A model generated the notes under the pieces. It saw only the letters and a program-made list of their open reading frames with translations. It was not told where the DNA came from and ran no database searches. Shown piece by piece: positions 7,701 through 63,860 of a stretch of 64,000 bases of DNA. Numbering within the stretch: the first letter of the stretch is position 1; every line of letters starts with the position of its first letter. The stretch spans positions 117,771-181,770 of the forward strand of contig NC_057754.1 in the NCBI RefSeq assembly GCF_004010195.1, in the 5' to 3' direction. The position numbers were made by a program, and so were the translations under genes. This stretch comes from Chiloscyllium plagiosum (Eukaryota).

Positions 7701-8259
7701 CACACAACTCATTGTGTTTATTGCCTATCTGTCCACGTGCTGGTGATGACAGTACTGCTGCTTGCAGCCTCACTTAGTGTTCACACCGAATGTAGCTCCC
7801 ACATGTTATCTATGGCCCCTGGAGACTCACTGTTCTACCTGCACCAGCATATTCCCATTGAGAGAGGTCACCTCATCCCAATGATCACTGGGGTGGGGAC
7901 AGGGCCGTCACTTGAGTACCTGGCTTCAGCGTCAGGTTGGTTCAGTCCTTTATCAGGGGGTGTCCCAAGCTTAATGGTGTGTGGATGGATGAGACTGTGG
8001 GGTGTCTCCCACTTTGATTTGGGCGAGTAAATGCTTCATAGGGAGGTGCGTAGGGCTAGGCAGGGTGTGAGTGGGGCAAGAGACTGAGTGCTTTTAGATT
8101 AATTGACACATCCAAGGTTGTTCATTTCACACCCATGCACCACCTTCCACTCCTTCCACAGCAGCTCTAGGTGTGCCTTGGGGAGAGACCAAGGGTGCAC
8201 TAGGAATGTACCTGCCATGGTTCCTGATGAATATAGTTTTTCTCTCTCTCCCTCTACAG

Positions 8260-8467
8260 TGAAGGATTTGATCTACTGGCGTGATCCTAAGAAGACAGGG
8301 GTTGTGTTTGGATCCATTCTGACCTTGTTGGTCTCGCTGGCAGTGTTTAGTGTGGTCAGTGTGTTGGCCTATCTTGTGCTGGCTTTGTTGTCCGTCACCA
8401 TCAGTTTCCGCATCTACAAGTCCGTGGTACAGGCTGTGCAGAAAACCAACGATGGAAATCCCTTCAA
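8260..8467 (+). CDS. RTN3: Reticulon homology domain exon 1 (208 bp)
   Basis: ctacag| acceptor, AA|gtaag donor; [70 protein letters not shown] is the canonical start of the reticulon domain. Confidence 0.95.
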
Positions 8468-8893
8468 GTAAGATTGCTGAAATGGTTTTTGGAGCGTGAA
8501 TGTCTATTTGATCATTTCCACTGCCTATCCCCCTCCAGTTCCTCCCCTGAGGTTGGGGTTGCGGTTGAGGGTGGGGTGGGGAATAGCATGTGTGGAAGAT
8601 TCACAAATATTTCATAGTCTTTGGGCAGTGTGTGGTTCCATCCAGAGACATCGTCTTGCAGATTGTATGGAGGACTCAGAGAGGCATCCCTGTCTTGTTT
8701 GATGGTTCAGGGTGCTGGAGCCGGATTACATTGATTTTCTTCCCCCCCCCCCACCGTGCCCCCGCAACTGGCCTGCTCTTCAGAACAGCCAGTGATTAAA
8801 CGGAACTGTCTGAATTGGATGGGGAACAGCAGGTCGAATTTGTCTTGAAACTGAGGCTGTGCCAGTGACAGGATCTGTCTTCATTCTGTTCAG

Positions 8894-17672: not shown

Positions 17673-18133
17673 TTAATGCTGGGCACAGATCATTCCTCCT
17701 GGTTTCCTGGGAGGACTCCTGTTCCTACTGGTGGACAGTTGCCAGAAGTCCATCTTAGCAACAGTGGCGATTTTCTTGTTCCACTCATCCACAACCATCA
17801 CCTTCTCGGCCAGTGTGTAATCCATGGTGTCCTGGTGTTTCTGTAGAATGTGCCTCTTGATGGTACTGAGCTTGAGGGTGGCCAGGGCACTGCCACACAC
17901 CATGCAGACCAGGCCATGTCGCCACTGGTCATAGTCCATCAGGTACTCGAGTCGCCAGCGCTCCTGATAGTTCCTCCAATGGTCCCTCCCTCGGCCTCGG
18001 CCCCGGCCCCTGACTGTCTGTGCCGGTAAGCTCAGATCTGGCTCCTCCACGCACACTTCAATTTCCACAGGGCTCGTTTCCCCACCCCAACCTGGGGACA
18101 CGTCCTTTGCAAACTCCACGACTGGATTTTCCT
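17673..18133 (-). CDS. ZFTA: ZFTA-like terminal coding exon, zinc finger 5
   Basis: attgtag| acceptor, phase 1; RGRGRGRGRDHWRNYQERWRLEYLMDYD...[27 protein letters not shown] at 17673-17675. Confidence 0.88.
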
Positions 18134-18199
18134 CTACAATGCAAAAACAGGACAGTAACAATTTGCATTTTAATACCACCTACAGCACACTAAAACATC

Positions 18200-19355: not shown

Positions 19356-20361
19356 CAACGTGGATCTAACATCCATCCATCACAGAACACTTCACAGAAG
19401 TGTTATTCAGGTTGCATTTGAAGAGTAGCCATGTAAGAAAGAAACAGGGACTTGCAACGAAATGAGGTCAGAGCAATCTGTTTTAAGGAGCGTTTCACAG
19501 GATGAAGACATCAGTTATAGAGTGGATTCCAGAGCTTAGGACCACAGACATCCAATGACACACTGCCAGGGATGGAGCAATGGGATTTGCGGTAAACTCA
19601 AAAGATCAGAATTGGAGGATGTTAGACAGGAAGAGTTGTAGGCACTGGAGGTGACAGCTGGGGGAGGGGTGTGAAGGTCACAAAGGGATTGAAATCAATG
19701 AAGAGAGTTTAGAAGTGGAACCATTGATGGATCAGGTTCTGAGAACACAGAATAATGGGTAAACTAGGATTTCCCCATGATTGCCATCTGTGATGTGTCA
19801 TCAAATCACACACACCAACATTCACTCATGGCTCTGATACTGCTCTGGATATACTTGGGAACCTGAACCCAGAACATTAATGCATGTCAATCAGGCTCTG
19901 GGTCATGTCTTGCCCTGTACTCGCTCCCCTCTAATGCACCTCTCCTTTGAGACTCAACATCCAATTGAGCTCAGTGCTGACTCTCAACACCAGCCCCTTC
20001 TTGGTATAATTTACCAAGTTGTTACAGTAGGTAACCGACGATTTCTCTATCAGGCCCAAGCCTGTTCTTGCGCTATTCTGGATATGAGACATGTTGGATC
20101 AGCCATGAGTCTATTGAATGGCGGAGCAGGCTTGAGGGGCCGAACAGCCTGCTCCTGTTCCAAGTTCTTATAGTTTTATGGAAGTTGCATGATGATGGGT
20201 CTACACAGCTACAAGATGTAGGAAGCTGTAATGACAGCGTGACATTTTGATATGGTCAGTTTTCCTTGGAGAAACTTCTTGTGGATAACTGCCTCAGAAT
20301 TATAGATTGGAGGTGTGTGAACTCTTTTGATAGTCAAGAGATCTGATAGCAATGACTTTAC

Positions 20362-21084
20362 CTGTAACTGCAGACTGTATCCTAAGGGCTGACAATTCCT
20401 CTTCCCGCGATTCGATCACTGCACTCTCCTGCAGAGATATAGTTTTCTTCCAGACATCCAGAACGTTCTTCCTCTCGGCCTGGTTGAAGTTAAGGGAGTG
20501 CGGGTGGTTCTGAAGGATGTGCCGTTTGATGGTGCAGAGGGCTACAGTAGCCAACGATTTTCCACACACCATGCAGACGAGGGTGTGCCACCACTGGTCA
20601 TAGTCCATCAGGTACTCGAACCGCCAGTGCTCTTGGTAGTGACAGCGTGGCTTCTTACCGGCTGACCAGTTAGAACCTGTCCCGGGCATCACCAGTTGCA
20701 CCGCTGTGCAGTCGCGCTGCAAAGCCCTCTCATTCCAGGCTTCCAGAATGTTCTCCTTCTCGGCCTGGTTGAAGTGCAGCGAGTGCGGATGGTTTTGGAG
20801 GATGTGTCGTTTGATGGTGCTGAGGGTGAGAGTAGCCAGGGATTTGCCACACACCATGCAGACTAGGCCATGCCGCCACCAGTCATAGTCCATCAGGTGT
20901 TCAAACCTCCAGCGTTCCTGGTAGTAACGACGGATACCTTTACTGGGCAACGGAGCCAGGGGGTTGTGCTGTGGCACCACCCGGTTATTATCAACAGGGA
21001 GTTGTGATTGATCCAGCAACACAGGAAAACCCACCACCTCGACAACTGAGCCAACATGAAGAGGATCCAAACGGACTTCGGTCC
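20362..21084 (-). CDS. ZFTA: ZFTA-like exon, zinc fingers 3 and 4
   Basis: ttcctgaag| acceptor, CAG|gtaaag donor, phase 1-1; two copies of YQExWRFExLMDYD...LVCMVCGKSLAT...[14 protein letters not shown]. Confidence 0.88.
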
Positions 21085-21210
21085 CTTCAGGAACAAGGGA
21101 AAACGTAACAAATTCACCAGCAGATAGTGACACACTCGCTCCTCCTCACCCACACGTTGGCTCCGCAGCCCCCACCAATGCATTACCCATGTGGCTGGGA
21201 GAGGGGAAAA

Positions 21211-23085
21211 GGAGTTGGCCTCAGGACCAGGCGGTTGGGTGCACGCGGAGGGAGTTGGCCTCAGGACCAGGCGGTTGGGTGAGACCGGAGGCAGTTGGCC
21301 TCAGGACCAGGCGGTTGGGTGCGCGCGGAGGGAGTTGGCCTCAGGACCTGGCAGTTGGGTGCGCGAGGAGGGAGTTGGCCTCAGGACCTGGCGGTTGGGT
21401 GCGCGCGGAGGGAGTTGGCCTCAGGACCAGGCGGTTGGGTGAGACCGGAGGGAGTTGGCCTCAGGACCAGGCGGAGGGAGTTGGCCTCAGGACCAGGCGG
21501 TTGGGTGCGCGCGGAGGGAGTTGGCCTCAGGACCAGGCGGAGGGAGTTGGCCTCAGGACCAGGCAGTTGGGTGCGCGCGGAGGGAGTTGGCCTCAGGACC
21601 TGGCGGTTGGGTGCCCGCGGAGGGAGTTGGCCTCAGGACCTGGCGGTTGGGTGCGCGCGGTGGGAGTTGGCCTCAGGACCAGGCGGTTGGGTGCGCGCAG
21701 AGGGAGTTGGCCTCAGGACCAGGTGGTTGGGTGCGCGCGGAGGGAGTTGGCCTCAGGACCTGGCGGTTGGGTGCGCGCGGAGGGAGTTGGCCTCAGGACC
21801 TGGCGGTTGGGTACGCGCGGAGGTGGTTAGCCTCAGGACCTGGCGGTTGGGTGCGCGCGGAGGTGGTTGGCCTCAGGACCTGGCGGTTGGGTGCGCGCGG
21901 AGGGAGTTGGCCTCAGGACCAGGCGGAGGGAGTTGGCCTCAGGACCAGGCGGTTGGGTGCGCGCGGAGGTGGTTGGCCTCAGGACCTGGCGGTTGGGTGC
22001 GCGCGGAGGTGGTTGGCCTCAGGACCTGGCGGTTGGGTACGCGCGGAGGTGGTTAGCCTCAGGACCTGGCGGTTGGGTGCGCGCGGAGGTGGTTGGCCTC
22101 AGGACCTGGCGGTTGGGTGCGCGCGGAGGGAGTTGGCCTCAGGACCTGGCGGTTGGGTGCGCGCGAAGGGAGTTGGCCTCAGGACCTGGCGTTGGGTGAG
22201 CGCGGAGGGAGTTGGCCTCAGGACCAGGCGGTTGGGTGCGCGCGAAGGGAGTTGGCCTCAGGACCTGGCGTTGGGTGAGCGCGGAGGGAGTTGGCCTCAG
22301 GACCAGGCGGAGGGAGTTGGCCTCAGGACCTGGCGGTTGGGTGCGCGCGGAGGGAGTTGGCCTCAGGACCGCGCGGATGGAGTTGGCCTCAGGACCAGGC
22401 GGTTGGGTGCGCGCGGAGGGAGTTGGCCTCAGGACCAGGCGGTTGGGTGAGCGCGGAGGGAGTTGGCCTCAGGACCAGGCAGAGGGAGTTGACCTCAGGA
22501 CCAGGCGGTTGGGTGCGCGCGGAGGGAGTTGGCCTCCGGACCAGGCGGTTGGGTGCGCGCGGAGGGAGTTGGCCTCAGGACCAGGCGGTTGGGTGCGCGC
22601 GGAGGGAGTTGGCCTCAGGACCTGGCGGAGGGAGTTGGCCTCAGGACCAGGTGGTTGGGTGCGCGCGGAGGGGGTTGGCCTCAGGACCAGGCGGAGGGAG
22701 TTGGCCTCAGGACCAGGCGGTTGGGTACGCGCGGAGGGAGTTGGCCTCAGGACCAGGCGGTTGGGTACGCGCGGAGGTGGTTGGCCTCAGGACCTGGCGG
22801 TTGGGTGCGCGCGGAGTGGTTTGGCCTCAGGACCAGGCGGAGGGAGTTGGCCTCAGGACCAGGTGGTTGGGTGCGCACGGAGGGAGTTGGCCTCAGGACC
22901 AGGCGGTTGGGTGCGCGCGGAGGGAGTTGGCCTCAGGACCAGGCGGTTGGGTGCGCGCGGAGGGAGTTGGCCTCAGGACCAGGCAGAGGGAGTTGGCCTC
23001 AGGACCAGGCGGTTGGGTGCGCGCGGAGGGAGTTGGCCTCAGGACCAGGTGGTTGGGTGCGCGCGGAGGGAGTTGGCCTCAGGAC
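21211..23085. repeat. GC/CpG-rich minisatellite (40-bp unit with 26- and 39-bp variants), roughly 50 units, in ZFTA intron 3
   Basis: Tandem ggagttggcctcaggaccaggcggttgggtgcgcgcggag and the shorter ggagttggcctcaggaccaggcggag. Confidence 0.97.
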
Positions 23086-23105
23086 TTGGTTGAGCTGCTC
23101 TGTAC

Positions 23106-23822
23106 CTGTCAGTGTCTCTGGCTCCACCCCTGGCTGCCGGTCACTGGTCTCTGATTGGTGACGCTCGTGCCGCCCCTCCCCTATACAGCAGTCCGAATGG
23201 AATCGATGTGACACATTTCCTGGCACCTGTCGCACTTGGTCGACGCTCGATTGGTCAACGACGCTGTCCATCATAGAGGTTGGCCTCCCTGGAACTGATT
23301 GGTCTTGCAGCATAGTACCCTCCCCTGGCACCTGCGGTAACTGACCGTCGCCGTGGGATAGAGCGGGAAACCGGGTCCCGTGCAATTCGAGGCCCGATTG
23401 GTGGGAAACGGCGGGAGCCGTGTTATCGACCGCTGATTGGTCTGTGTGAGGGAGGAGGCGGTGCCTTAGGTGTCCCGCTTCTGTTAAGGGGGGCTGTGTT
23501 TGGTGCAGGAGCCGATCCATCCAAGTGGCCATTACGACGCGTCGCTGACGGGCAGTCAGACTGAGTGAGGCCTGGTGCCTTTGGAGGATGTGCCGCTTTA
23601 TGGTGCTCAGCTTGAGAGTGGCCAGGCCGCTGCCGCACACCATACACACCAGGCCATGTCGCACGCCATCGTAATCCATCAGGTACTCCGTCCGCCAGCG
23701 CTCCTGGTAGTACCGCCTCACAGGCCGCCGGCTCAGCGCCCCCTTTGCCGGGTCCGGCCTTGGCGGAGACATCCTACCCGGAGCGGCCTCAGCCGACCTT
23801 TGATCCGCGGCCGGAGGTATCC
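23106..23822 (-). CDS. ZFTA: ZFTA-like exon, zinc finger 2
   Basis: cccacag| acceptor at 23822; [48 protein letters not shown]. The donor CAG|gtacag at 23106 is the best phase-1 candidate before the minisatellite but is less certain. Confidence 0.8.
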
Positions 23823-24820
23823 CTGTGGGAGGGGAAAAAAATGGCACATCCGTTGGACGTCTCTTGATTTTTTTTCCCCAAAATTCAATCTGGCTCCACC
23901 CCCATAGGAAGCCATTCTGCCCCTCGAGCCTGTTATCCCATTCCTCATGTCCACTTTCCTCGATTCCCTGACTGATCAGAATCTATTTATTGAAACCTTA
24001 CAAGGACTTTGCCCCCACAGCGCTCTGTGGCAAAGGGTTTCAAAGATTCACAACACTCTTGAGAGAAAATAAATTCCTCATTTACCTCAGTTTTCAGTTG
24101 GTGCTCATTTATTCCTTGACTCTTCCATGAGGGGAAACATCTGCTCAGCATTTACTCTGTCGAGATCCTTAGGAATCCCAGATGTCTCTATAAGATCACC
24201 TTTCATTCTTCTCAACTCCAGTGAGTAGAGTCGTAAAGATCTCAGCATGAAAACAGGCCCTTCGGTCCATGTGGACTAGGTATCCTAAATTAATCCAGTC
24301 ACATTTGCCAGCATTTGGCCCATTTATATACCCATGGGTATATAAATAGGCCCTTCCTATTTATATACCCATCCAGATGCCTTTTAAATGTTGCAATTGT
24401 ACCAGCTTCCATCATTTCCTCTGGCAGCTCATTCCATACACGCATCACCTTCTACATGAAAACATTGCCCCTTAGGTTTAGACTCTCCTAAGCTGGGGAA
24501 AAAGACTTTGGCTATTCACTCCATCCATACCCTTCATGATTTTATAAACCTCAACCTCCAATGCTCCAGGTTAAATGGTAGAGTCCCAACAGGTTAACCT
24601 TTGTTCATAACACAATTCCTCCATATTGGGGATCAGTCTAGCGAACCTTCTCTGTACAGCCTCCAATGAAATTATATGTTTCCTTAAATAAGAAAATAAA
24701 TACTGCTGTCAGTACTCCAGATGTGGTCTCACCAGCACCTTGGACAGTTGTGGTGAGACTTCCTACTCTTACACTCCAATCTCCTTGAAATAACATTAGC
24801 CTTCCTGATTACCTCAAGAT

Positions 24821-25965
24821 TATTGTATCGGCGCTGCCTCGTGCTCCCACGAGGAGTTTGAACAGTTCATCCACTTTACCAACACCTTCCGCCCCGACCT
24901 CAAATTCACCTGGACCATCTCAGACTCCTCCCTCCCCTTCCTAGACCTTTCCATTTCTATCTCGGGTGACCGAATCGACACGGACATCTACTATAAACCG
25001 ACCGACTCCCACAGCTACCTAGACTACACCTCCTCCCACCCTGCCCCCTGTAAAAACGCCATCCCATATTCCCAATTCCTTCGTCTCCACCGCATCTGCT
25101 CCCAGGAGGACCAGTTCCAAAACCGTACAACCCAGATGGCCTCCTTCTTCAAGGACCGCAACTTCTCCCCAGACGTGGTCGACGATGCTCTCCACCGCAT
25201 CTCTTCCANNNNNNNNNNNNNNNNNNNNNNNNNNNNNNNNNNNNNNNNNNNNNNNNNNNNNNNNNNNNNNNNNNNNNNNNNNNNNNNNNNNNNNNNNNNN
25301 NNNNNNNNNNNNNNNNNNNNNNNNNNNNNNNNNNNNNNNNNNNNNNNNNNNNNNNNNNNNNNNNNNNNNNNNNNNNNNNNNNNNNNNNNNNNNNNNNNNN
25401 NNNNNNNNNNNNNNNNNNNNNNNNNNNNNNNNNNNNNNNNNNNNNNNNNNNNNNNNNNNNNNNNNNNNNNNNNNNNNNNNNNNNNNNNNNNNNNNNNNNN
25501 NNNNNNNNNNNNNNNNNNNNNNNNNNNNNNNNNNNNNNNNNNNNNNNNNNNNNNNNNNNNNNNNNNNNNNNNNNNNNNNNNNNNNNNNNNNNNNNNNNNN
25601 NNNNNNNNNNNNNNNNNNNNNNNNNNNNNNNNNNNNNNNNNNNNNNNNNNNNNNNNNNNNNNNNNNNNNNNNNNNNNNNNNNNNNNNNNNNNNNNNNNNN
25701 NNNNNNNNNNNNNNNNNNNNNNNNNNNNNNNNNNNNNNNNNNNNNNNNNNNNNNNNNNNNNNNNNNNNNNNNNNNNNNNNNNNNTCGCTCCACCTATCGC
25801 AATTCCAACGCCCCTCCCCCAAGTCCCTCCTCCCTACCTTTTATCTTAGCCTGCTGGACACACTTTCCTCATGCCTGAAGAAGGGCTTATGCCCGAAACA
25901 TCGATTCTCCTGTTCCTTGGATGCTGTCTGACCTGCTGCGCTTTTCCAGCAACACATTTTCAGCT
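24821..25965 (+). mobile_element. Penelope-like retroelement fragment (RT C-terminal part, gap, 3' end) with 16-bp TSD
   Basis: Translates FLDLSISISGDRIDTDIYYKPTDSHSYLDYTSSHPAPCKNAIPYSQFLRLHRICS, typical of PLE reverse transcriptase; ctgattacctcaagat at 24805-24820 and 25966-25981. Confidence 0.85.
25209..25784. other. Assembly gap (N run) inside a Penelope-like element
   Basis: Run of N. Confidence 1.
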
Positions 25966-33274: not shown

Positions 33275-35635
33275 TAATAGGGTAGTTATGGTAGGGGATT
33301 TTAACTTTCCAAGCATTGACTGAGATTGCCATTGTGTTAAAGGTTTAGATGGAGAGGAATTTCTTAAGTGTGTGCAAGACAATTTTCTGATTCAGTATGT
33401 GGATGTACCTACTAGAGAAGGTGCAAAACTTGACCTACTCTTGGGAAATAAGGCAGGGCAGGTGACTGAGGTGTCAGTGGGGGAGCACTTTGGGGCCAGC
33501 GACCATAATTCTATTTGTTTTAAAATAGTGATGGAAAAGGATAGACCAGGTCTAAAAGTTGAAGTTCTAAATTGGAGAAAGGCCAATTTTGACAGTATTA
33601 GGCAAGAACTTTCGAAAGCTGATTGGAGGCAGATGTTTGCAGGTAAAAGGACGGCTGGAAAGTGGGAAGCCTTCAGAAATGAGATAACGAGAGCCCAGCG
33701 AAAGTATATTCCTGTCAGGGTGAAAGGGAAGGCTGGTAGGTATAGGGAATGCTGGATGACTAAAGAAATTGAGAGTTTGGTTAAGAAAAAGAAGGAAGCA
33801 TATGTCAGGTACAGACAGGATAGATCGAGTGAATCCTTAGAAGACTACAAAGAAAGTAGGAGTATACTTAAGAGGGAAATCAGGAGGGCAAAAAGGGGAC
33901 AAGAGATAGCTTTGGCAAATAGAATTACGGAAAATCCAAAGGGTTTATACAAATATATTAAGGACAAAAAGGTAACTAGGGAGAGAATAGGGCACCACAA
34001 AGATCAGCAAGGCAGCCTTTGTGTGGAGCTACAGAAAATGGGGGAGATACTAAATTAATACTTTGCATCAGTATTTACTGTGGAAAAGGATATGGAAGAT
34101 ATAGACTGTAGGGAAATAGATGGTGACATCTTGCAAAATGTCCAGATTACAGAGGAGGAAGTGCTGGATGTCTTGAAACGGTTAAAAGTAGATAAATCCC
34201 CAGGACCTAATCAAGTGTACCCGAGAACTCTGTGGGAAGCTAGAGAAGTGATTGCTGGGCCTCTTGCTGAGATATTTGTATCATCGATAGTCACAGGTGA
34301 GGTGCCGGAAGACTGGAAGTTGGCAAACGTGGTGCCACTGTTTAAGAAGGGCGGTAAAAACAAGCCAGGGAACTGTAGACCGATGAGCCTGACCTCGGTG
34401 GTGGGCAAGTTGTTGGAGGGAATCCTGAGAGACAGGATGTACATGTATTTGGAAAAGCAAGGACTGCTTAGGGATAATCAACATGATTTTGTGCGTGGGA
34501 AATCATGTCTCACAAACTTGANNNNNNNNNNNNNNNNNNNNNNNNNNNNNNNNNNNNNNNNNNNNNNNNNNNNNNNNNNNNNNNNNNNNNNNNNNNNNNN
34601 NNNNNNNNNNNNNNNNNNNNNNNNNNNNNNNNNNNNNNNNNNNNNNNNNNNNNNNNNNNNNNNNNNNNNNNNNNNNNNNNNNNNNNNNNNNNNNNNNNNN
34701 NNNNNNNNNNNNNNNNNNNNNNNNNNNNNNNNNNNNNNNNNNNNNNNNNNNNNNNNNNNNNNNNNNNNNNNNNNNNNNNNNNNNNNNNNNNNNNNNNNNN
34801 NNNNNNNNNNNNNNNNNNNNNNNNNNNNNNNNNNNNNNNNNNNNNNNNNNNNNNNNNNNNNNNNNNNNNNNNNNNNNNNNNNNNNNNNNNNNNNNNNNNN
34901 NNNNNNNNNNNNNNNNNNNNNNNNNNNNNNNNNNNNNNNNNNNNNNNNNNNNNNNNNNNNNNNNNNNNNNNNNNNNNNNNNNNNNNNNNNNNNNNNNNNN
35001 NNNNNNNNNNNNNNNNNNNNNNNNNNNNNNNNNNNNNNNNNNNNNNNNNNNNNNNNNNNNNNNNNNNNNNNNNNNNNNNNNNNNNNNNNNNNNNNNNNNT
35101 GCAATTCTGGTCTCCTTCCTAACGGAAAGATGTTGTGAAACTTGAAAGGGTTCAGAAAAGATTTACAAGGATGTTGCCAGGGTTGGAGGATCTAAGCTAC
35201 AGGGAGAGGCTGAACAGGCTGGGGCTGTTTTCCCTGGAGCGTCAGAGGCTGAGGGGTGACCTTATAGAGGTTTACAAAATTATGAGGAGCATGGATAGGA
35301 TAAATGGACAAAGCCGTTTCCTTAGAGTCGGGGAGTCCATAACTAGAGGGCATAGGTTTAGGGTGAGAGGGGAAATATATAAAATTGTCCTAAGTGGCAA
35401 CTTTTTCACGCAGAGGATGGTATGTGTATGGAATGAGCTGCCAGAGGATGTGGTGGAGGCTGGTACAATTGCAACATTTAAGAGGCATTTGGATAGGTAT
35501 ATGAATAGGAAGGGTTTGGAGCGATATGGGGCGGGTGCTGGCAGGTGGGACTAGATTGGGTTGGGATATCTGGTCGGCATGGACGGGTTGGATCAAAGGG
35601 TCTGTTTCCATGCTGTCCATCTCTATGACTCTATC
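33275..35635 (+). mobile_element. CR1-type LINE ORF2 (endonuclease C-terminus, RT start, gap, 3' end)
   Basis: PTREGAKLDLLL...SDHN; KSPGP...WKLANVVPLFKKG...SLTSVVGKLLE...KSCLTNL; LERVQKRFTRMLPGL...RLRGDLIEVYKIM; ctctatgactcta tail. Confidence 0.92.
34522..35099. other. Assembly gap (N run) inside a CR1 LINE
   Basis: Run of N. Confidence 1.
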
Positions 35636-39229: not shown

Positions 39230-39778
<549 letters not shown>

Positions 39779-56364: not shown

Positions 56365-56630
56365 CTACACCTCGGTCTCGAGTCCACTAAGTTTTGGCGT
56401 GAGAATCCGGGGCGTGAGACCCTTGTTCAGGTCCATTTCAAACTCCAGCAGTTGCCCCATGAAGTTGAGGTTGGGAGAGATGATGGGTCGTTTGCCCTTT
56501 ACATATTTGTAGGCATCTGTCATGGTCATCAGCGTGTGCTTCATCAGGTAGGCAATGACCAGAGTGGCAGAACGGGAGACTCCTGCCTGGCAGTGGATTA
56601 GAACCCCCTTGCCACATTGGTGGGCTTCCT
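56365..56630 (-). CDS. DUSP10-like terminal coding exon with active site
   Basis: tttttag| acceptor; [32 protein letters not shown]...[15 protein letters not shown]...TPRILTPKL; HCx5R intact; TAG at 56365-56367. Confidence 0.95.
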
Positions 56631-56744: not shown

Positions 56745-57445
56745 CAGTGGGACAGTGTGCAGCGAGACAGTGTGCAGTGTGACAGAGCGCAGCGGGACTG
56801 TGCGATGGGGCAGTGTGCAGTGTGACAGAGCACACTGAGACAGTGTGTGGTGGGACAGTGTGCAGTGAGACAGAGCACAGTGAGACAGAGCACAGTGAGA
56901 CAGAGTGCATCAGGACTGTGTGATGGGTCAGTGTGCAATGTGGCAGGGTGCAGTAAGACTGTGTGCAGTATGGCAGAATGCAGTAGGACTGTGTGATGGG
57001 ACAGTGTGCAGTGTGATAGAGCACAGTGAGACAGTGAGCGATGGGACAGTGTGTCATGTGACAGAGCACAGTGAGACAGTGTGCAGTGTGACAGAGCACA
57101 GTGAGACAGAGCACAGTGGGACAATGTGCAATGAGACCATGTGCAGTGGGACAGAGCACAGTGAGACAGAGCGCAGTGGGACAGAGCGCAGTGGGACAGA
57201 GCGCAGTGGGACAGAGCGCAGTGGGACAGAGCGCAGTGGGACACTGAGCGGAGTGACAGTGTGCAGTGTGACAGATCGCAGTGAGACATAGCGCAGTGGG
57301 ACAGTGAGCGAAGGGACAGTGAGCGATGGGACAGTGTGTCATGTGACAGAGCACTGTGAGACAGTGTGCAGTGGGTGGCAGAGCGCAGTGGGACAGAGCG
57401 CAGTGGGACAGAGCGCAGTGGGACAGAGCGCAGTGGGACAGAGAG
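56745..57445. repeat. Degenerate 15-bp tandem repeat in the last intron of the DUSP10-like gene
   Basis: Repeated gagcgcagtgggaca / gagcacagtgagaca. Confidence 0.92.
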
Positions 57446-57469: not shown

Positions 57470-57829
57470 CGATGAATTCGAAAGCCTCCTCGAAGTACTG
57501 GCGGAGGTTCTGTTTGCTGTTGTCAGTTGCTGGCAGCCTCTTGTAGTGTACACTGCCAGTCTGTGCATGGTACAGGGGAAGATGGGTGGTGACATTGATG
57601 ACATATCCCACATTTAACTGGCGCAGCCTGACCAGGTCCTGGGCATCACGCTCATTCCCTAGGTACAGGAACGGCAGGATGGGGCTCAGCTCGGCATTTT
57701 CAATGTCAGGGGTCAAGGGGAGTGTGCCTTCACATTCTCCATATGACCTTTCGAACACCTCCTTCCCTTCATCCCGTGGCCTCATTGATGCAGAGCTGGG
57801 CGCTGTAACCTCCTTCTCATACCCAGGTT
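57470..57829 (-). CDS. DUSP10-like exon, N-terminal part of the catalytic domain (360 bp)
   Basis: ttttccag| acceptor, G|gtgagt donor, phase 1-1; [26 protein letters not shown]...[25 protein letters not shown]. Confidence 0.93.
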
Positions 57830-58239
57830 CTGGAAAAGCAGAGTAGAGAGAAGATCACAATGCATATCCCTCATAATCAAAATCTCTCATCACTTACCCT
57901 CAGAATCTTTTCCTGATCATCCTCAATCTGTGTCCACTGGGTTACAGATCCCTCTGCTGCTAAAAACAGAAGGAAGAATGGACGACTGTTTATTGAGTAG
58001 TGGTACCACCTAGATATTGTAGAGTGCTTCTCATGAAATTCCAAAGTCAGAAGATGAAGGAATATGGAAAACGCTGGCATTAATAACCAGGTATTTTATT
58101 TGTTCAGAACTTCATAAAGATTTGGTCCTTTCTGTAAACCCTGTGGTAGGAAATCACTCAGCATGTAATTAAATCAGCTCCTTTGAGAGCCAAACCAGTT
58201 TTGAGTGAGCATTCAGTCAGCTGTGAGTACATAGAACAT

Positions 58240-58940
58240 AAAGTCATAGAGATGTACAGCATGGAAACAGACCCTTCAGTCCAACCCGCCCATACCGACC
58301 AGATATCCAAATCTAATCTAGTCCCACCTGCCAGCACCCGGCCCATATTCTTCCAAACCCTTCCTATTCATATACCCATCCAAATGCCCATCTTAAATGT
58401 TGCAATTGTACCAGCCTCCACCACTTCCTCTGGCAGCTCATTCCATACACGTACCAACCTCTGCGTGAAAAAGTTGCCCCTTAGGTCTCTTTTATATCTT
58501 TCCCCTCTCACCCTAAACCTATGCCCTCTAGTTCTGGACTCCCTGACCCCAGGGAAAAGACTTTGCCTTTTACCCTATCTATGCCCCTCATAATTTTGTA
58601 AACCTCTATAAGATCACCCCTCAGCCTCCAACCCTTCAGGGAAAACAGCCTGTTCAGCCTCTCCCTATAGCTCAAATCCTCCAACCCTGGCAACATCCTT
58701 GTAAATCTTTTCTGAACCCTTTCAAGTTTCACAACATCTTTCCGATAGGAAGGAGACCAGAATTGCATGCAATATTCCAACAGTGGCCTAACCAATGTCC
58801 TGTACAGCCGCAACATGACCTCCCAACTCCTGTACTCAATACTCTGACCAATAAAGGAAAGCATACCAAACACCTTCTTCACTATCCTATCTACCTGCGA
58901 CTCCACTTTCAAGGAGCTATGAACCTGCACTCCAAGGTCT
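58240..58940 (-). mobile_element. CR1-type LINE 3' fragment in a DUSP10-like intron
   Basis: LYRTLVRPLLEYCMQFWSP...LERVQKRFTRMLPGL. Confidence 0.9.
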
Positions 58941-59984
58941 CAATACACCGCAGAATAGGCCCTTCAGCTCTTGATGTTGTGCCGACCTGTGAAATAATCA
59001 AACCCATCTAATCTAATCTCTCTCACCCTACACTATCCAATCATCACCCATGTGCTTATCCAAGGACTGTTTAAATGCCCTAATGTGGCTGTGTTAACTA
59101 CATTGGAAGGCAAGGCATTCCACGCCCTTACCACTCTCTGAGTAAAGAACCTGCCTCTGACATCTGTCTTAAATCTATCACCCCTCAATTCGCAATAATT
59201 AGTTTAGATTCCCTACAGTGTAGAAATAGGCCATTTGGCCCAACTAGCCCACATTGACCTTCCGAAGCGTAACCCACCCAGACCCATTTCCTTCTGACAA
59301 ATGCACCTAACACTATGGGCAATTTAGAATGGCCAATTCACCTGACCTGCAGGTCTTTGGACTGAGGGAGGAAACCGGAGCACCCAGAGGAAACTCACGC
59401 AGACACAGGGAGAATGTGCAAATTCCAAACAGACAGTTGTCCGAGGCTGAAATCGAACCTGGGACCCTGGTGCTGTGGGGCAGCAGTGCTAACCAATTTG
59501 ATGTTCCCAACCTACATGAAGATTAAGTGCTGCCTTTGTTACAGGCCCTCATTATTTCCTGATTTATTCTCTCGTCTGCAGCATAGCTACTTTCAGGGGG
59601 ATTACAGACTACGCCCATGAGGGTTTTCTTCCCCTCTTTATTTCTTACCTCAACCATTATTGATTTTACATTTCTGATTCAAGATAATTTCTTGCTAATG
59701 TACTGATTCCATCTTATATTAACAAACCAGTCCACTACCCTTCCCTTCCTGCCTGTTTTTCTGAAAAATCCAAAAGCATGGGGGAGGATGGGATAGTAGA
59801 TAGTGGAGGGCAGTCTCAGGAGGGCTCAGGAATGGTTGAGGAGGGGAAAGGTGTCCTCAATATGGTTCTGGCATCGGTCTCACATATTTACAACATTCAG
59901 AATTGAGAAGGAGGCTGGATTTGGAGCATAGGCCCACCAGGGATGGCAATTTCTCTTATCCTGATGTTGGGAATGGATGGTCCC

Positions 59985-60650
59985 CCCTTACTTCCCTCCA
60001 AGGGACCCTTCCATATCCGCCATAAATTCACCTGCACCTCCACACACATCAATTACTGCATCCGCTGCACCTGATGTGGCCTCCTCTATATTGGGGAGAT
60101 AGGCTGCCTACTTGCGGAACGTTTCAGAGAACACCTCTGGGACATCCGGACCAACCAACTCAACCACCCCGTGGCTCAACACTTCAACTCCCCCTCCCCC
60201 TCCCACTCCACCAAGGACATGCAGGTCCTTGGACTCCTCCATCGCCAGACCATAGCAACACGACGGCTGGAGGAAAAGTGTCTCATCTTTCGCCTCGGAA
60301 CCCTCCAACCACAAGGGATGAACTCAGGCTTCTCCAGTTTCCTCATTTCCCCTCCCCCCACCTTGTCTCAGTCCCAATCCTCAAACTCAGCACCACCTTC
60401 CTAACCTGCAATCTTCTTCCTGACCTCTCCACCCCTACCCCCACTCCGGCCTATCACCCTCACCTTAATCTCCTTCCACCTATCGCATTTCCAACGCCCC
60501 TCCCCCAAGTCCCTCCTCCCTACCTTTTATCTTAGCCTGCTTGGCACACTTTCCTCATGCCTGAAGAAGGGCTCATGCCCGAAACATCGATTCTCCTGTT
60601 CCCTGGATGCTGCCTGACCTGCTGCGCTTTTCCAGCAACACATTTTCAGC
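59985..60650 (+). mobile_element. Penelope-like element 3' fragment (GIY-YIG region and 3' end)
   Basis: YCIRCT*CGLLYIGE...RFREHL...VAQHFNSPS...RRLEEKCLIFRLGTLQPQGMN; 3' end nearly identical to 7490-7700 and 25785-25965. Confidence 0.85.
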
Positions 60651-60819
60651 TCTTATGAAATAAGAACCAAGTACGAGGTCTGCTAATCCCTGATGTGTTC
60701 TTTAATCACCCACCGGGGAGAAAGGGATGATGGATTCATGTCCTTGTTGTCTGGGATGGGCAGTTGGAGTGGACTGCAATCTGTCCTGAGCTGTAGCAGA
60801 GCCCTGCCACCCCATACAC

Positions 60820-61080
60820 AGTATCTCTCTCTCTCTCACACACATATACATACACACACTCTTACAAACGCATACACATACACACACATTCACACATGTA
60901 AACACACATGCACAAACACACGCACAAACACTCATCAAGCACACGCTCTCTCTCACACACACATATGCATACATACATACATACACACATACAATCTAAC
61001 ACAATATACATTCACACATACATAGTTACATACGCACATACATAGATAGTCATAGACACACACACACAGTTAAATACACA
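60820..61080. repeat. Imperfect (CA)n microsatellite
   Basis: Direct inspection. Confidence 0.85.
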
Positions 61081-61214
61081 AAAACATAAAAAATAGCAGC
61101 AGGGTTAGGCCATTTGGCCATTAGCCAACTCCACCATTCAATAAGATCATGGCTGATCTTCGTGTGGACTCAGGTCTCCACTTACCCACCCCTCACCACA
61201 ACCCTTAATTCCTT

Positions 61215-62620
61215 TAGAGTCATAGACATATACAGAACAGAAACAGACCCTTCGGTCCAACTCATCCATGTTGACCAGATATCCTATCTAAATCTAGTCC
61301 CATTTGCCAGCATTTGGCTCATATCCCTCTAAATCCTTCCTGTTCGTGATACCATCTGGATACCTTTTAAATGTTGTTATCACACCAGCCTCCACCTCTT
61401 CCTCTGTCAGCATATTCCATACATGCACCACCCTCTGCGTGAAAAAGTTGCCCCTTTGGTCCTTTTTAAATCTTTCCCCTCTCACATTAAACCTATGCCC
61501 TTTAGTTTTGGACTCTCCCATCCAGGGGAAAAGATCTTGCCTATTTACCTTATCCATGGCCCTCATGGTTTTATAAACCTCTGTAAGGTCACACCTCAGC
61601 CTCTGACTCCAGGGAAAATAGACCTAGCCTATTCAGCCTTTCCCTATACCTCAAACCTTCCAGTCCTGGCAACATCCTTGTAAATCTTTTCTGAACCCTC
61701 TCAGGTTTCACAACATCCTTCCTTTCGGAGGGAGACAAGAATTGCATGCAACATTCCAAACGTGGCCAAACCAATGTCCTGTACATGACCTCCCAACTCC
61801 TATACTCAATGCACTAACCAATAAAGGTAAGCATACCAAATGCCTTCTTCACTATCACCTGCAACCCCACTTTCAAGGAACTATGAACCTGCACCCAACG
61901 GTCTCTGTTCAGCACCACTCCCCAGGACCTTACCATTAAGTGTATAAGTACTGCTCTGATTTCCTTTTCAAAATGCCGCACCTCACATTCATCTAAACTA
62001 AACTCCATCTGCCACTCCTTGGCCCATTGGCCCATCTGATCAAGATCGTGTTGTACTCTGAGGTTACCTTCTTGGCTGTCCACTACACCTCCAATTTTTC
62101 AATTTACTGTTCAAAAATCTATTTCACTTGAAAAACATTCAACGAGGTAGCCTCTACTGCTTCACTGGAATTCCATAGATTCATAACCCTTTGGATGAAG
62201 ACGTTCCTCATTAATTCAATTTGAAATCTGCTCTGCTTTATTTTGAGGCTATGCCCCTAGGTCTAGTTCACCTGCCAGTAGAAACAACCTCCCTGCTTCT
62301 ATCGTATCTATTCCCTTCATAATTTTATATGTTTCTATAAGATCCCCCCCCCGCATTCTTCTAAGTTCCAATAAGTATAGTCCCAGTCTACTTAATCTGT
62401 CCTCATAAGCCAACCCTTACAATTCCAGAATTAATCTAGCAACCCTCCTCCAGTCCCAGTACTGTACATCCTTTCTCAAGTAAGGAGACTGAAACTGTAC
62501 ACAGTACTCCAGGTGTGGCCTCACCCCCAGCACCCTACACAGCTGCAACATAACTTTCCTGTTTTTAAACTTCATCCCTCTAGCAATGAAGGACACTATT
62601 CTATTTGCCTTCTTAATAAC
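61215..62620 (-). mobile_element. Nested CR1-type LINE fragments
   Basis: 61215-62095 matches 27630-28525 in reverse; 62100-62620 encodes VRPHLEYCVQFQSPYLRKD. Confidence 0.85.
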
Positions 62621-62767
62621 ATGAAGGCGTACGTGTACGTGTACATACACACACACACACTCTCACACACACACACACTTCCCCTCCATCCAACAAGGCA
62701 GTGCAGAACATTTCATAAACATACACAAGAACTCCGTAGAAATTAAGACTGACTGGACAATCCTTAC

Positions 62768-63860
62768 CTCGCCCGTCCCGGTCCTCCCTGTGGATTGAAT
62801 CCAGGATCAAGTGGAGAGACTGTGGAGTGAGGGTTCTGCTGGGATTCCGGACTCTTGGCTTGGAGCTGCTGGCCTGCTGGTGCCAGGCTGTTCCACACGG
62901 CGGCTTGGCCTCTTGGTTCTTGGAGAGGAGATCAAAAACGGTCAGCCCCCCATGGTCGGGCACACCCCTCCCTGGGCCCTCTGACCAGCCGATCCTCATG
63001 GCACCCTGCAGTTGGCTCTTCGTGAATTCCACCAGATTGCGACAGTCCAGGATAACAGCTGATTGCTGCTGGACTTTGGTGCTGCCCATCTTCTTGGCCA
63101 GCTCCTCTGGCCAGATGGTGTGGGCATTGTAGTCATCCTCCTCCTTCTTGTCATCTGCCTCCTCCACCTTGCTGGCCTTGGAGCCCCGGGGGTTGAAGGT
63201 CACTATGGGGTCACTGCTGCAGAAACTGCAAGAGGAGCTGACAGACCTTAGGGAGGGGTCGCAGGTGAGGCAGCTGATGGCCCGCAGGCTTGGCAAGCAG
63301 CCCACTCTCCGGAGAGCCGGCCCACAGCCCAGGGTCCTGAGGCCAGCTCTGCATGACAGGCAGGAGCTGGAGACCGGCTCATCACGGCTCACCAACTTCC
63401 AGCAGCCCCAGCAGCTGCCCCTCAGAGGCTTCATGGCACTGAGGCAGGACGGCATGGGGCTAGGCAGGCAGGCACCCCCACGCGCTTGGGATGCCCCGTG
63501 CCTCTCCTCCAAAGGACTGTCCCTCTCCCTGAGGCCGGGCTGCTGACCAACCAAGGAAGCCTTCCTCAGGGACCTGAAGGAGAGCTGCAAGCTGTCCACG
63601 TCTTGTGGGGGCAGGCCTACGGAGACCCTAATATCCAGTGGCGGGCTATCCACTGACTTTGGGCTGAACTGCCTGCTGCTCTCAGCCTGTGCCTGTGCCT
63701 TCTCCAGCCCCAGAACCTGGTCTGTAATCTCAGGGCTGTCCAGGCTGGGGGACAGATGGGTCCTCCCCACACGTGCTGTCTTGTTGAGATGCAGTGCTAG
63801 TGTCCGGGGCCTTTGCAGTACCTGAACCACCAGCCGTTCATCAAAGAGAGAAGGAGGCAT
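62768..63860 (-). CDS. DUSP10/MKP5-like phosphatase, first coding exon (N-terminal extension and divergent rhodanese domain)
   Basis: MPPSLFDERLVV resembles the DUSP10 start MPPSPLDDRVVV; IWPEELAKKM...VILDCRNLVEFTKSQLQGA...LTVFDLLS...QSLHLILDSI resembles the DUSP10 rhodanese domain; donor GAG|gtaagg, phase 1. Confidence 0.88.

Follow-up and report, generated by a model that had tools for sequence, protein, structure and literature searches.

One of the closest known relatives of the gene examined here is human MKP5 (DUSP10), in which p38 is bound by the rhodanese domain and JNK by a JIP1-type motif (PMC4670726). That motif, at residues 18-24, gave positive results by dot blot and at the cell level, and motifs of its class prefer Ser or Thr ahead of the first hydrophobic residue (PMC4670726). 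Removing the docking domain from human MKP5 raises the Km for p38α 280-fold and barely changes the kinetics with JNK1, which binds the catalytic domain only; the published model buries Leu449 in a JNK1 pocket (PMC4802042). MKP7 (DUSP16; 4yr8) is a distant relative of our gene (E 2e-31) that keeps a folded docking domain and makes more hydrophobic contacts with JNK, and by analogy it would share the same FXF-type, docking-independent recognition of JNK1 by the catalytic domain; without its docking domain MKP7 still dephosphorylates p38 well (PMC4802042). The fly counterpart of DUSP10, Drosophila Puckered, is a negative regulator of JNK, and overexpression of mosquito MKP5 lowers the phosphorylation of ERK, JNK and p38 alike (PMC6264519). 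Puckered is a single-copy invertebrate ortholog and not a duplicate.

We describe a gene from the bamboo shark Chiloscyllium plagiosum that departs from these systems in its docking region. Sequence comparison places it as a separate jawed-vertebrate paralog of DUSP10 that coexists with an intact DUSP10, the latter being shown for Chiloscyllium in the congener C. punctatum. We propose that it encodes a JNK-biased MAPK phosphatase, with p38 probably left to the intact DUSP10 of the same sharks, and assign this reading, drawn by analogy with human MKP5, a probability of roughly 0.6.

The reading frame and its support

The gene lies on the minus strand of the window, the stretch of 64,000 nucleotides that was analysed, and has the following features.

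62768-63860 (-), coding exon 1: ATG at 63860, residues 1-364, GT donor at 62767; contains the JNK D-motif, the cysteine-rich segment and the rhodanese remnant
63792-63812 (-), putative JIP1-type JNK docking motif RPRTLAL, residues 17-23: a sequence pattern that matches the human DUSP10 motif
63198-63425 (-), cysteine-rich segment, residues about 146-221, from consensus and cysteine counts
62768-63119 (-), degenerate rhodanese-like kinase-binding domain, from Pfam and the canonical-domain HMM
62961-62969 (-), docking (KIM) position R298-G299-V300, facing RRR 202-204; bases confirmed by X3 record 22
62859-62873 (-), ASSSK (330-334) where the core strand IIVYD stood, from alignment; coordinates counted from the ATG
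57830-62767 (-), intron 1: 4938 nt, GT..AG, phase 1, mostly dispersed repeats
57470-57829 (-), coding exon 2: linker plus the N-terminal half of the catalytic domain; PATD general-acid loop at 57522-57533
56365-56630 (-), coding exon 3: HCQAGVSRS at 56569-56595, Tyr525 at 56509-56511, LNFM at 56458-56469, stop

Intron 2 is 839 nt long and likewise GT..AG. Joined, the three exons encode 572 amino acids identical to the last 572 residues of database model P0388, with a start that agrees with both the MPPS start of C. punctatum P0002 and the canonical DUSP10 start; identity to the C. punctatum protein is 98%. Model P0388 has 190 extra N-terminal residues, derived in part from beyond the window and absent in the congener's model, and its residues 1-190 are probably translated 5' UTR. 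The segments quoted in an earlier note on this DNA were found in their places on the minus strand, with PATD and HCQAGVSRS intact, so that its readings of the letters were accurate.

An assembly error at the docking site is very unlikely, because the site is identical in C. punctatum and nearly identical in Stegostoma and is matched by X3 record 22, a contig of an independent public run that covers 62794-63167 with one difference, a synonymous one. The junction of exons 1 and 2 is defined by splice signals and database gene models; no joint between them appeared in the reads and contigs of four public runs among the rows listed, in a table swamped by repeats. Sampling about 2 in 100 reads of the single-cell polyA run X9 gave 0 reads on the exons, and runs X1 and X2, whose RNA origin is a guess, gave short contigs confined to exons; none of the three is evidence on expression. 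One further contig (X3 record 17, 1919 letters, window 57470-58262) begins within intron 1, spans exon 2 and ends its match exactly at the intron 2 donor, with 1126 more letters beyond the compared stretch. It could represent RNA that keeps intron 1 or starts inside it, and such RNA would encode little beyond the catalytic domain.

Two other readings of the frame were tried and rejected. A frameshift across the docking region finds no DUSP10-like sequence in the other frames, and the alignment stays in register. Read-through of the exon 1 donor meets an LDGG word after 25 residues, followed by a stop in a CA repeat; we regard the word as a chance occurrence, with no catalytic domain attached. 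The three sense frames of intron 1 hold no RRR[LF] and no IIVYD-type word, and the five LxGG words found there are isolated. No added exon can supply the docking cluster, since the docking position sits within exon 1 and in register.

A second DUSP10 lineage in jawed vertebrates

A search with the exon 1 region picked out 55 of 274 candidate proteins; they come from sharks, rays, lungfish, amphibians, turtles, squamates and ray-finned fishes. A search with the lungfish member added, within the best 120 of 195 matches, coelacanth, sturgeon, gar and many teleosts, and frog members (P0063) were found by profile search alone. We count 129 paralogs, 12 elasmobranch (including C. plagiosum and its congener) and 117 bony. 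No bird, crocodilian, mammal or chimaera member was among the matches listed, and the same searches also overlooked the frogs. Databases name these proteins 'DUSP10-like', 'DUSP10' or si:dkey-175m17.7, or leave them unnamed; the frog sequences P0063, P0389, P0390 and P0391, which retain RPRSLPL, are called 'uncharacterized protein'. Because some members carry the plain label 'DUSP10' (Pogona P0025, Polypterus P0038), expression studies in fish and reptiles may mix two genes.

The best 120 of 172 matches to the canonical domain include an intact DUSP10 in C. punctatum (P0209), with RRR, IIVYD and LKGG all present, and in at least 8 other cartilaginous fishes. The earlier note had presented the C. 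plagiosum gene as a DUSP10-like phosphatase with lost or rewired docking; a distinct paralog is the better description, the congener having canonical P0209 as well. In a maximum-likelihood tree of docking and catalytic domains (45 chosen sequences, 311 columns), the paralog clade has a support of 100 and the canonical clade 99, and the two are joined at 100, with amphioxus, acorn worm, brachiopod and molluscs as outgroups. When only the catalytic domain is used (172 columns), support for the canonical clade is again 99, and this clade nests inside the paralogs at supports of 36-65. Support for the joint clade is 100 in both trees; the paralog forms one clade only in the 311-column alignment, which includes the shared decay. 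In both trees P0209 falls within the canonical clade and the C. plagiosum paralog outside it. The latter also shares the diagnostic paralog residues S323, N378, V404 and Y437 and the CSFCSS word, and on these grounds it is classed as a member of the DUSP10/MKP5 subfamily in the broad sense and not as an ortholog of DUSP10. Both clades contain cartilaginous and bony members, and the sequences thereby show the duplication to be older than the split between sharks and bony fishes. Paralog branches are longer than those of canonical DUSP10.

Docking domain, catalytic domain and JNK motifs

The C. plagiosum paralog aligns with the kinase-binding domain of human DUSP10 (3tg1_B and 2ouc_A, E 5e-14 and 6e-14) without a gap through the docking site, where RGV faces the RRR of positions 202-204, numbered after the mammal-type protein P0222. 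The first arginine is retained and the second and third are gone, which narrows the earlier statement that the RRR cluster is missing: two of its three residues are lost, one is kept, and no conserved basic cluster was found at the KIM position. The neighbouring residues L205 and Q206 are replaced by P and D; together with R204, now V, they show little or no variation across 30 canonical and invertebrate proteins. The reported absence of LKGG holds, since the alignment offers no counterpart after the last helix present, and the IIVYD strand and the last helix of the canonical domain have disappeared too. Pfam Rhodanese matches over profile positions 2-39 of 102 only, under the cut-off, and the canonical-domain HMM (142 positions) gives 52 bits compared with 251-269 for three held-out canonical proteins. 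Judged by its sequence, the protein is without two hallmarks of classical MKPs: a complete rhodanese-like domain, with DCR box, core strand and LxGG box, and a basic docking cluster, of which one of three arginines is left.

Parts of the domain persist. All 11 of the 11 elasmobranch rows agree in T280, K281, L284, G286 and VFDLL, and the length of the docking segment is exactly constant across the carpet, mackerel, cat and cow sharks; in sawshark and rays it is exchanged for Gly/Pro/Ala runs of variable length. AlphaFold2 models of the shark and lungfish paralogs, built from 54-row alignments with no canonical control, fold the catalytic domain alone (mean pLDDT 50 and 51) and predict two isolated helices of low confidence in the N-domain. 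Foldseek with the predicted structure gave catalytic-domain matches only, among the matches listed. The predicted helix 274-285 probably corresponds to the α2 helix, which also touches p38 (PMC4802042).

Across the family, we propose that the loss went in steps. The IIVYD-type strand is present in 120 of 121 canonical proteins and in 0 of 129 paralogs, and [VI]LKG[GE] in 89 of 121 and 0 of 129, most of the canonical misses being gene models broken at that exon border. RRR[LFI] has a different distribution: it occurs in 121/121 canonical proteins, in 110/117 bony paralogs and in 0/12 elasmobranch paralogs. Counted by register, three basic residues stand at 202-204 in 121/121 canonical proteins, in 102 of the 107 bony paralogs that could be anchored (9/116 could not) and in 0/12 elasmobranchs, where two basic residues remain in 5/12, one in 3/12 and none in 4/12. 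Four frog sequences have lost the whole stretch from the second helix to the docking site. The sequences thus indicate that strand and LKGG disappeared family-wide, and RRR only in elasmobranchs and, separately, in frogs; the earlier note had listed the RRR and LKGG losses together, and their ages differ.

Scores on the canonical-domain HMM grade this decay. Coelacanth has 140 bits, lungfish 115 and salamander 104; the range is 80-91 for caecilian, turtle, skink, bichir and sturgeon (85-91 for turtle and skink) and 81-87 for three other sharks. C. plagiosum scores 52 bits, zebra shark 48, and gar and pike 45-47; sawshark and rays drop to 8-28 and frogs to 10. Two invertebrates reach 133 and 162 bits, and bee DUSP10 (P0075, 161 bits) has the full docking domain; Puckered is not known to have a rhodanese domain. 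The ancestor would have possessed the whole domain, since part of the last helix survives in the coelacanth paralog. Coelacanth P0320 and bichir P0038, both slow-evolving, carry remnants of the LKGG box and last helix just past the exon border.

The catalytic domain has been conserved. It is identical to that of P0222 at 124 of 148 positions (84%), and its best matches among solved structures are all DUSP10 (E 2e-92), with the next family at E 1e-40. DSPc is above the Pfam cut-off, at 42.6 and 96.9 bits for the exon pieces and 143 bits for the spliced C. punctatum ortholog; the HCxxGxxRS loop and general-acid Asp are both present, which assigns the protein to DSPc on its sequence. The active-site residues Cys498, Asp467 and Arg504 are kept, and the description of the gene as related to MKP5 and intact at its catalytic site is borne out at the level of these residues. 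Equivalents of C408, R414 and Y435 (MKP5 numbering) occur in all 185 complete-domain rows of 253 proteins, the conservation of D377 and C408 being partly by construction because the row filter demanded HC and PxxD words. Tyr525 corresponds to Y435, the allosteric tyrosine of MKP5 (PMC9676401).

LNFM corresponds to the JNK-binding site at MKP5 449-452 and is kept in the C. plagiosum paralog, as are M431 and T432. L449-N450-F451-M452 is conserved in 8/8 elasmobranch, 4/4 frog and 89/90 other bony paralogs. The differences in the C. plagiosum domain include R428 to L and N379 to S, the latter at a residue named as JNK-facing (PMC4802042).

At the N-terminus, RPxxLx[LIM] falls in the first 45 residues of 6/6 elasmobranch, 4/4 frog, 85/94 other bony and 116/116 canonical sequences, counting sequences with an MPP start only (33 of 253 without one were left unscored); outside that zone it matches 11 times in 134,456 residues. 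In C. plagiosum the JIP1-class D-motif of the DUSP10 subfamily is thus present as a pattern alone, and the Thr of RPRT-L fits the preference for Ser or Thr before the first hydrophobic residue. Its retention at residues 17-23 qualifies the earlier suggestion of lost or rewired docking, a putative JNK D-motif being still in place.

Between this motif and the rhodanese remnant lies a cysteine-rich segment (GCW...CxxC...CSFCSSDPIV) that is found throughout the paralogs and exceeds in length the corresponding cysteine cluster of canonical DUSP10. The median number of cysteines in the 130 residues preceding the first helix is 12 in elasmobranchs (n=8), 9 in other bony vertebrates (n=115), 7 in frogs (n=4) and 6 in canonical proteins (n=80). 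Several cysteines are at least 90% conserved over 54 paralog rows, and the CS[FY]CSS word occurs in 124/129 paralogs and 0/121 canonical proteins. The segment has no match in Pfam, by predicted fold or in the ESM Atlas.

Compared with human DUSP10/MKP5 (3tg1, 2ouc, 1zzw, 2oud), then, the paralog has the same active site, allosteric tyrosine, LNF site, C-terminal tail and JIP1-type motif, and its first coding intron likewise falls where the docking domain ends, as judged from gene models breaking at VLK/G. It differs in its separate clade, in RGV, in having no IIVYD, LKGG or last helix, in its cysteine-rich expansion and in reading NS for SN after the general acid. The bony-vertebrate 'DUSP10-like'/si:dkey-175m17.7 proteins share its clade, cysteine-rich segment, IIVYD and LKGG loss and type of N-terminal motif; they mostly carry RRR (110/117), unlike the elasmobranch paralogs.

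Proposed JNK bias, alternatives and genomic setting

Three exons encode a 572-residue protein with all catalytic residues, a member of a DUSP10 lineage already present in cartilaginous and bony vertebrates, in which the p38-docking surface appears damaged and the RPxxLxL motif and the catalytic-domain LNF site are retained. By comparison with human MKP5, RPRTLAL would tether JNK via the D-groove of the kinase, LNF would position JNK via its F-site, and Cys498, Asp467 and Arg504 would then dephosphorylate it; p38 would be a poor substrate for an enzyme with no docking helix. Because the p38-docking arginines have decayed and the active site and both JNK motifs are intact, we propose that the enzyme likely switches off JNK rather than p38. 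The idea that it relies on catalytic-domain recognition of JNK, already raised in the earlier note, is probable by analogy with human MKP5 (PMC4802042). Duplication would have been followed by a stepwise division of labour, taken furthest in rays, carpet sharks and frogs. Since most bony paralogs retain RRR, the bias cannot be claimed for the whole family, and the behaviour of overexpressed mosquito MKP5 advises caution in deducing specificity from motifs. The invariant domain remnants, among them the possible p38-touching helix, the retention of R298 and the change of N379 to S may also count against it.

These remnants are the substance of a different account, which we consider unlikely, in which docking is rewired: the first helix, the DCR box and next helix, W292, R298, TVFDLL and the LHLIL helix would bind p38, ERK or a new partner, and the enzyme would stay active on several MAPKs. 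Their motifs are invariant or nearly so in 11 elasmobranch rows, including W292 in place of a cysteine, and the segment does not change in length among carpet, mackerel, cat and cow sharks. Moreover, as MKP7 acts on p38 without its docking domain, docking loss need not abolish p38 activity (PMC4802042). Rewiring is harder to reconcile with the variable Gly/Pro/Ala runs that replace the segment in sawshark and rays, with the exchange of the otherwise (near-)invariant R204, L205 and Q206 for V, P and D, and with the missing core strand motif in 129 of 129 paralogs. Still less probable, in our view, is that the cysteine-rich segment, through metal binding or lipidation, targets the enzyme to a compartment or a non-MAPK substrate and makes MAPK docking secondary. 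The raised cysteine medians, the cysteines conserved at 90% or more and the near-exclusive CS[FY]CSS word speak for such a role, whereas Pfam, predicted structure and the ESM Atlas give no family, fold or look-alike for the segment, and the strong retention of the JNK motif and LNF argues for JNK as substrate. Targeting of this kind can coexist with a JNK-biased enzyme.

We give little credence to the view that the gene is a redundant duplicate under relaxed selection, its N-terminal decay functionally meaningless and the gene itself on its way out. Long branches and the lack of bird, crocodilian, mammal or chimaera members among the matches listed would suit that view; the open frame and the near-invariance of the catalytic domain and of the JNK and cysteine motifs from sharks to reptiles would not. 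That a misassembly or an overlooked exon conceals a normal docking domain is hardly credible: no spliced read crosses intron 1 among the rows listed, but the docking position lies in register inside exon 1, where an extra exon cannot restore it, two other carpet sharks and an independent contig have the same sequence, the other frames do not restore the motif, and intron 1 is devoid of RRR[LF] and IIVYD-type words, its LxGG words being isolated.

MKP5 reads p38 and JNK by separate surfaces, and the paralogs form a natural series, running from coelacanth through lungfish, reptiles, sharks and rays to frogs, that dismantles one surface stepwise and keeps the other. The series opens to testing whether the docking helix of an MKP requires the rhodanese fold and what role a JNK-only MKP5 plays in a vertebrate. 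More tentatively, and with the odds somewhat against it, the paralogs may constitute an unrecognised eleventh MAPK-phosphatase lineage of jawed vertebrates, apparently absent from mammals, in which the rhodanese fold dissolved, RRR persisted in most bony vertebrates as a free-standing linear docking motif, and two independent losses, in elasmobranchs and frogs, then left a dedicated JNK phosphatase steered by the JIP1-type motif and a new cysteine-rich module. If true, docking in a JNK-dedicated lineage would have passed from a folded domain to a linear motif that was later lost on two occasions. Public gene models already contain the proteins, and their catalytic chemistry is ordinary. Our literature search returned no paper describing the paralog; it mostly did not cover subscription papers, such as phosphatase genomics surveys, which may list it. 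The accessible portion of a catfish DUSP survey mentions one dusp10 (PMC11598348). On which arginines contact p38, the search for R203/R204 returned nothing relevant.

The window also contains the following neighbours.

8103-8468 and about 9400 (+), reticulon-domain exons (PF02453), E 3e-15
17676-18179, 20303-21145 (two), 23002-23982 and 39230-39778 (-), five Spin-doc zinc-finger units (PF18658), E 1e-26 or better per ORF

We take the Spin-doc units to belong, probably, to ZFTA-like and/or SPINDOC-like genes, and the reticulon, by synteny, to be RTN3-like; a low-complexity long ORF at 2-613 may be its large N-terminal exon. In the human genome RTN3, ZFTA, SPINDOC and MARK2 are grouped at 11q13, and DUSP10 is close to MARK1 at 1q41, an arrangement by which the paralog would be a whole-genome-duplication copy of DUSP10; our look-ups gave no confirmation of it. 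The assembly has gaps at 25209-25784 and 34522-35099. A G-rich tandem array lies between zinc-finger exons at about 21100-23150, and intron 2 of the paralog contains a long tandem repeat with a 15-bp unit (56745-57443); these two repeats yield several open frames of 250-330 codons.
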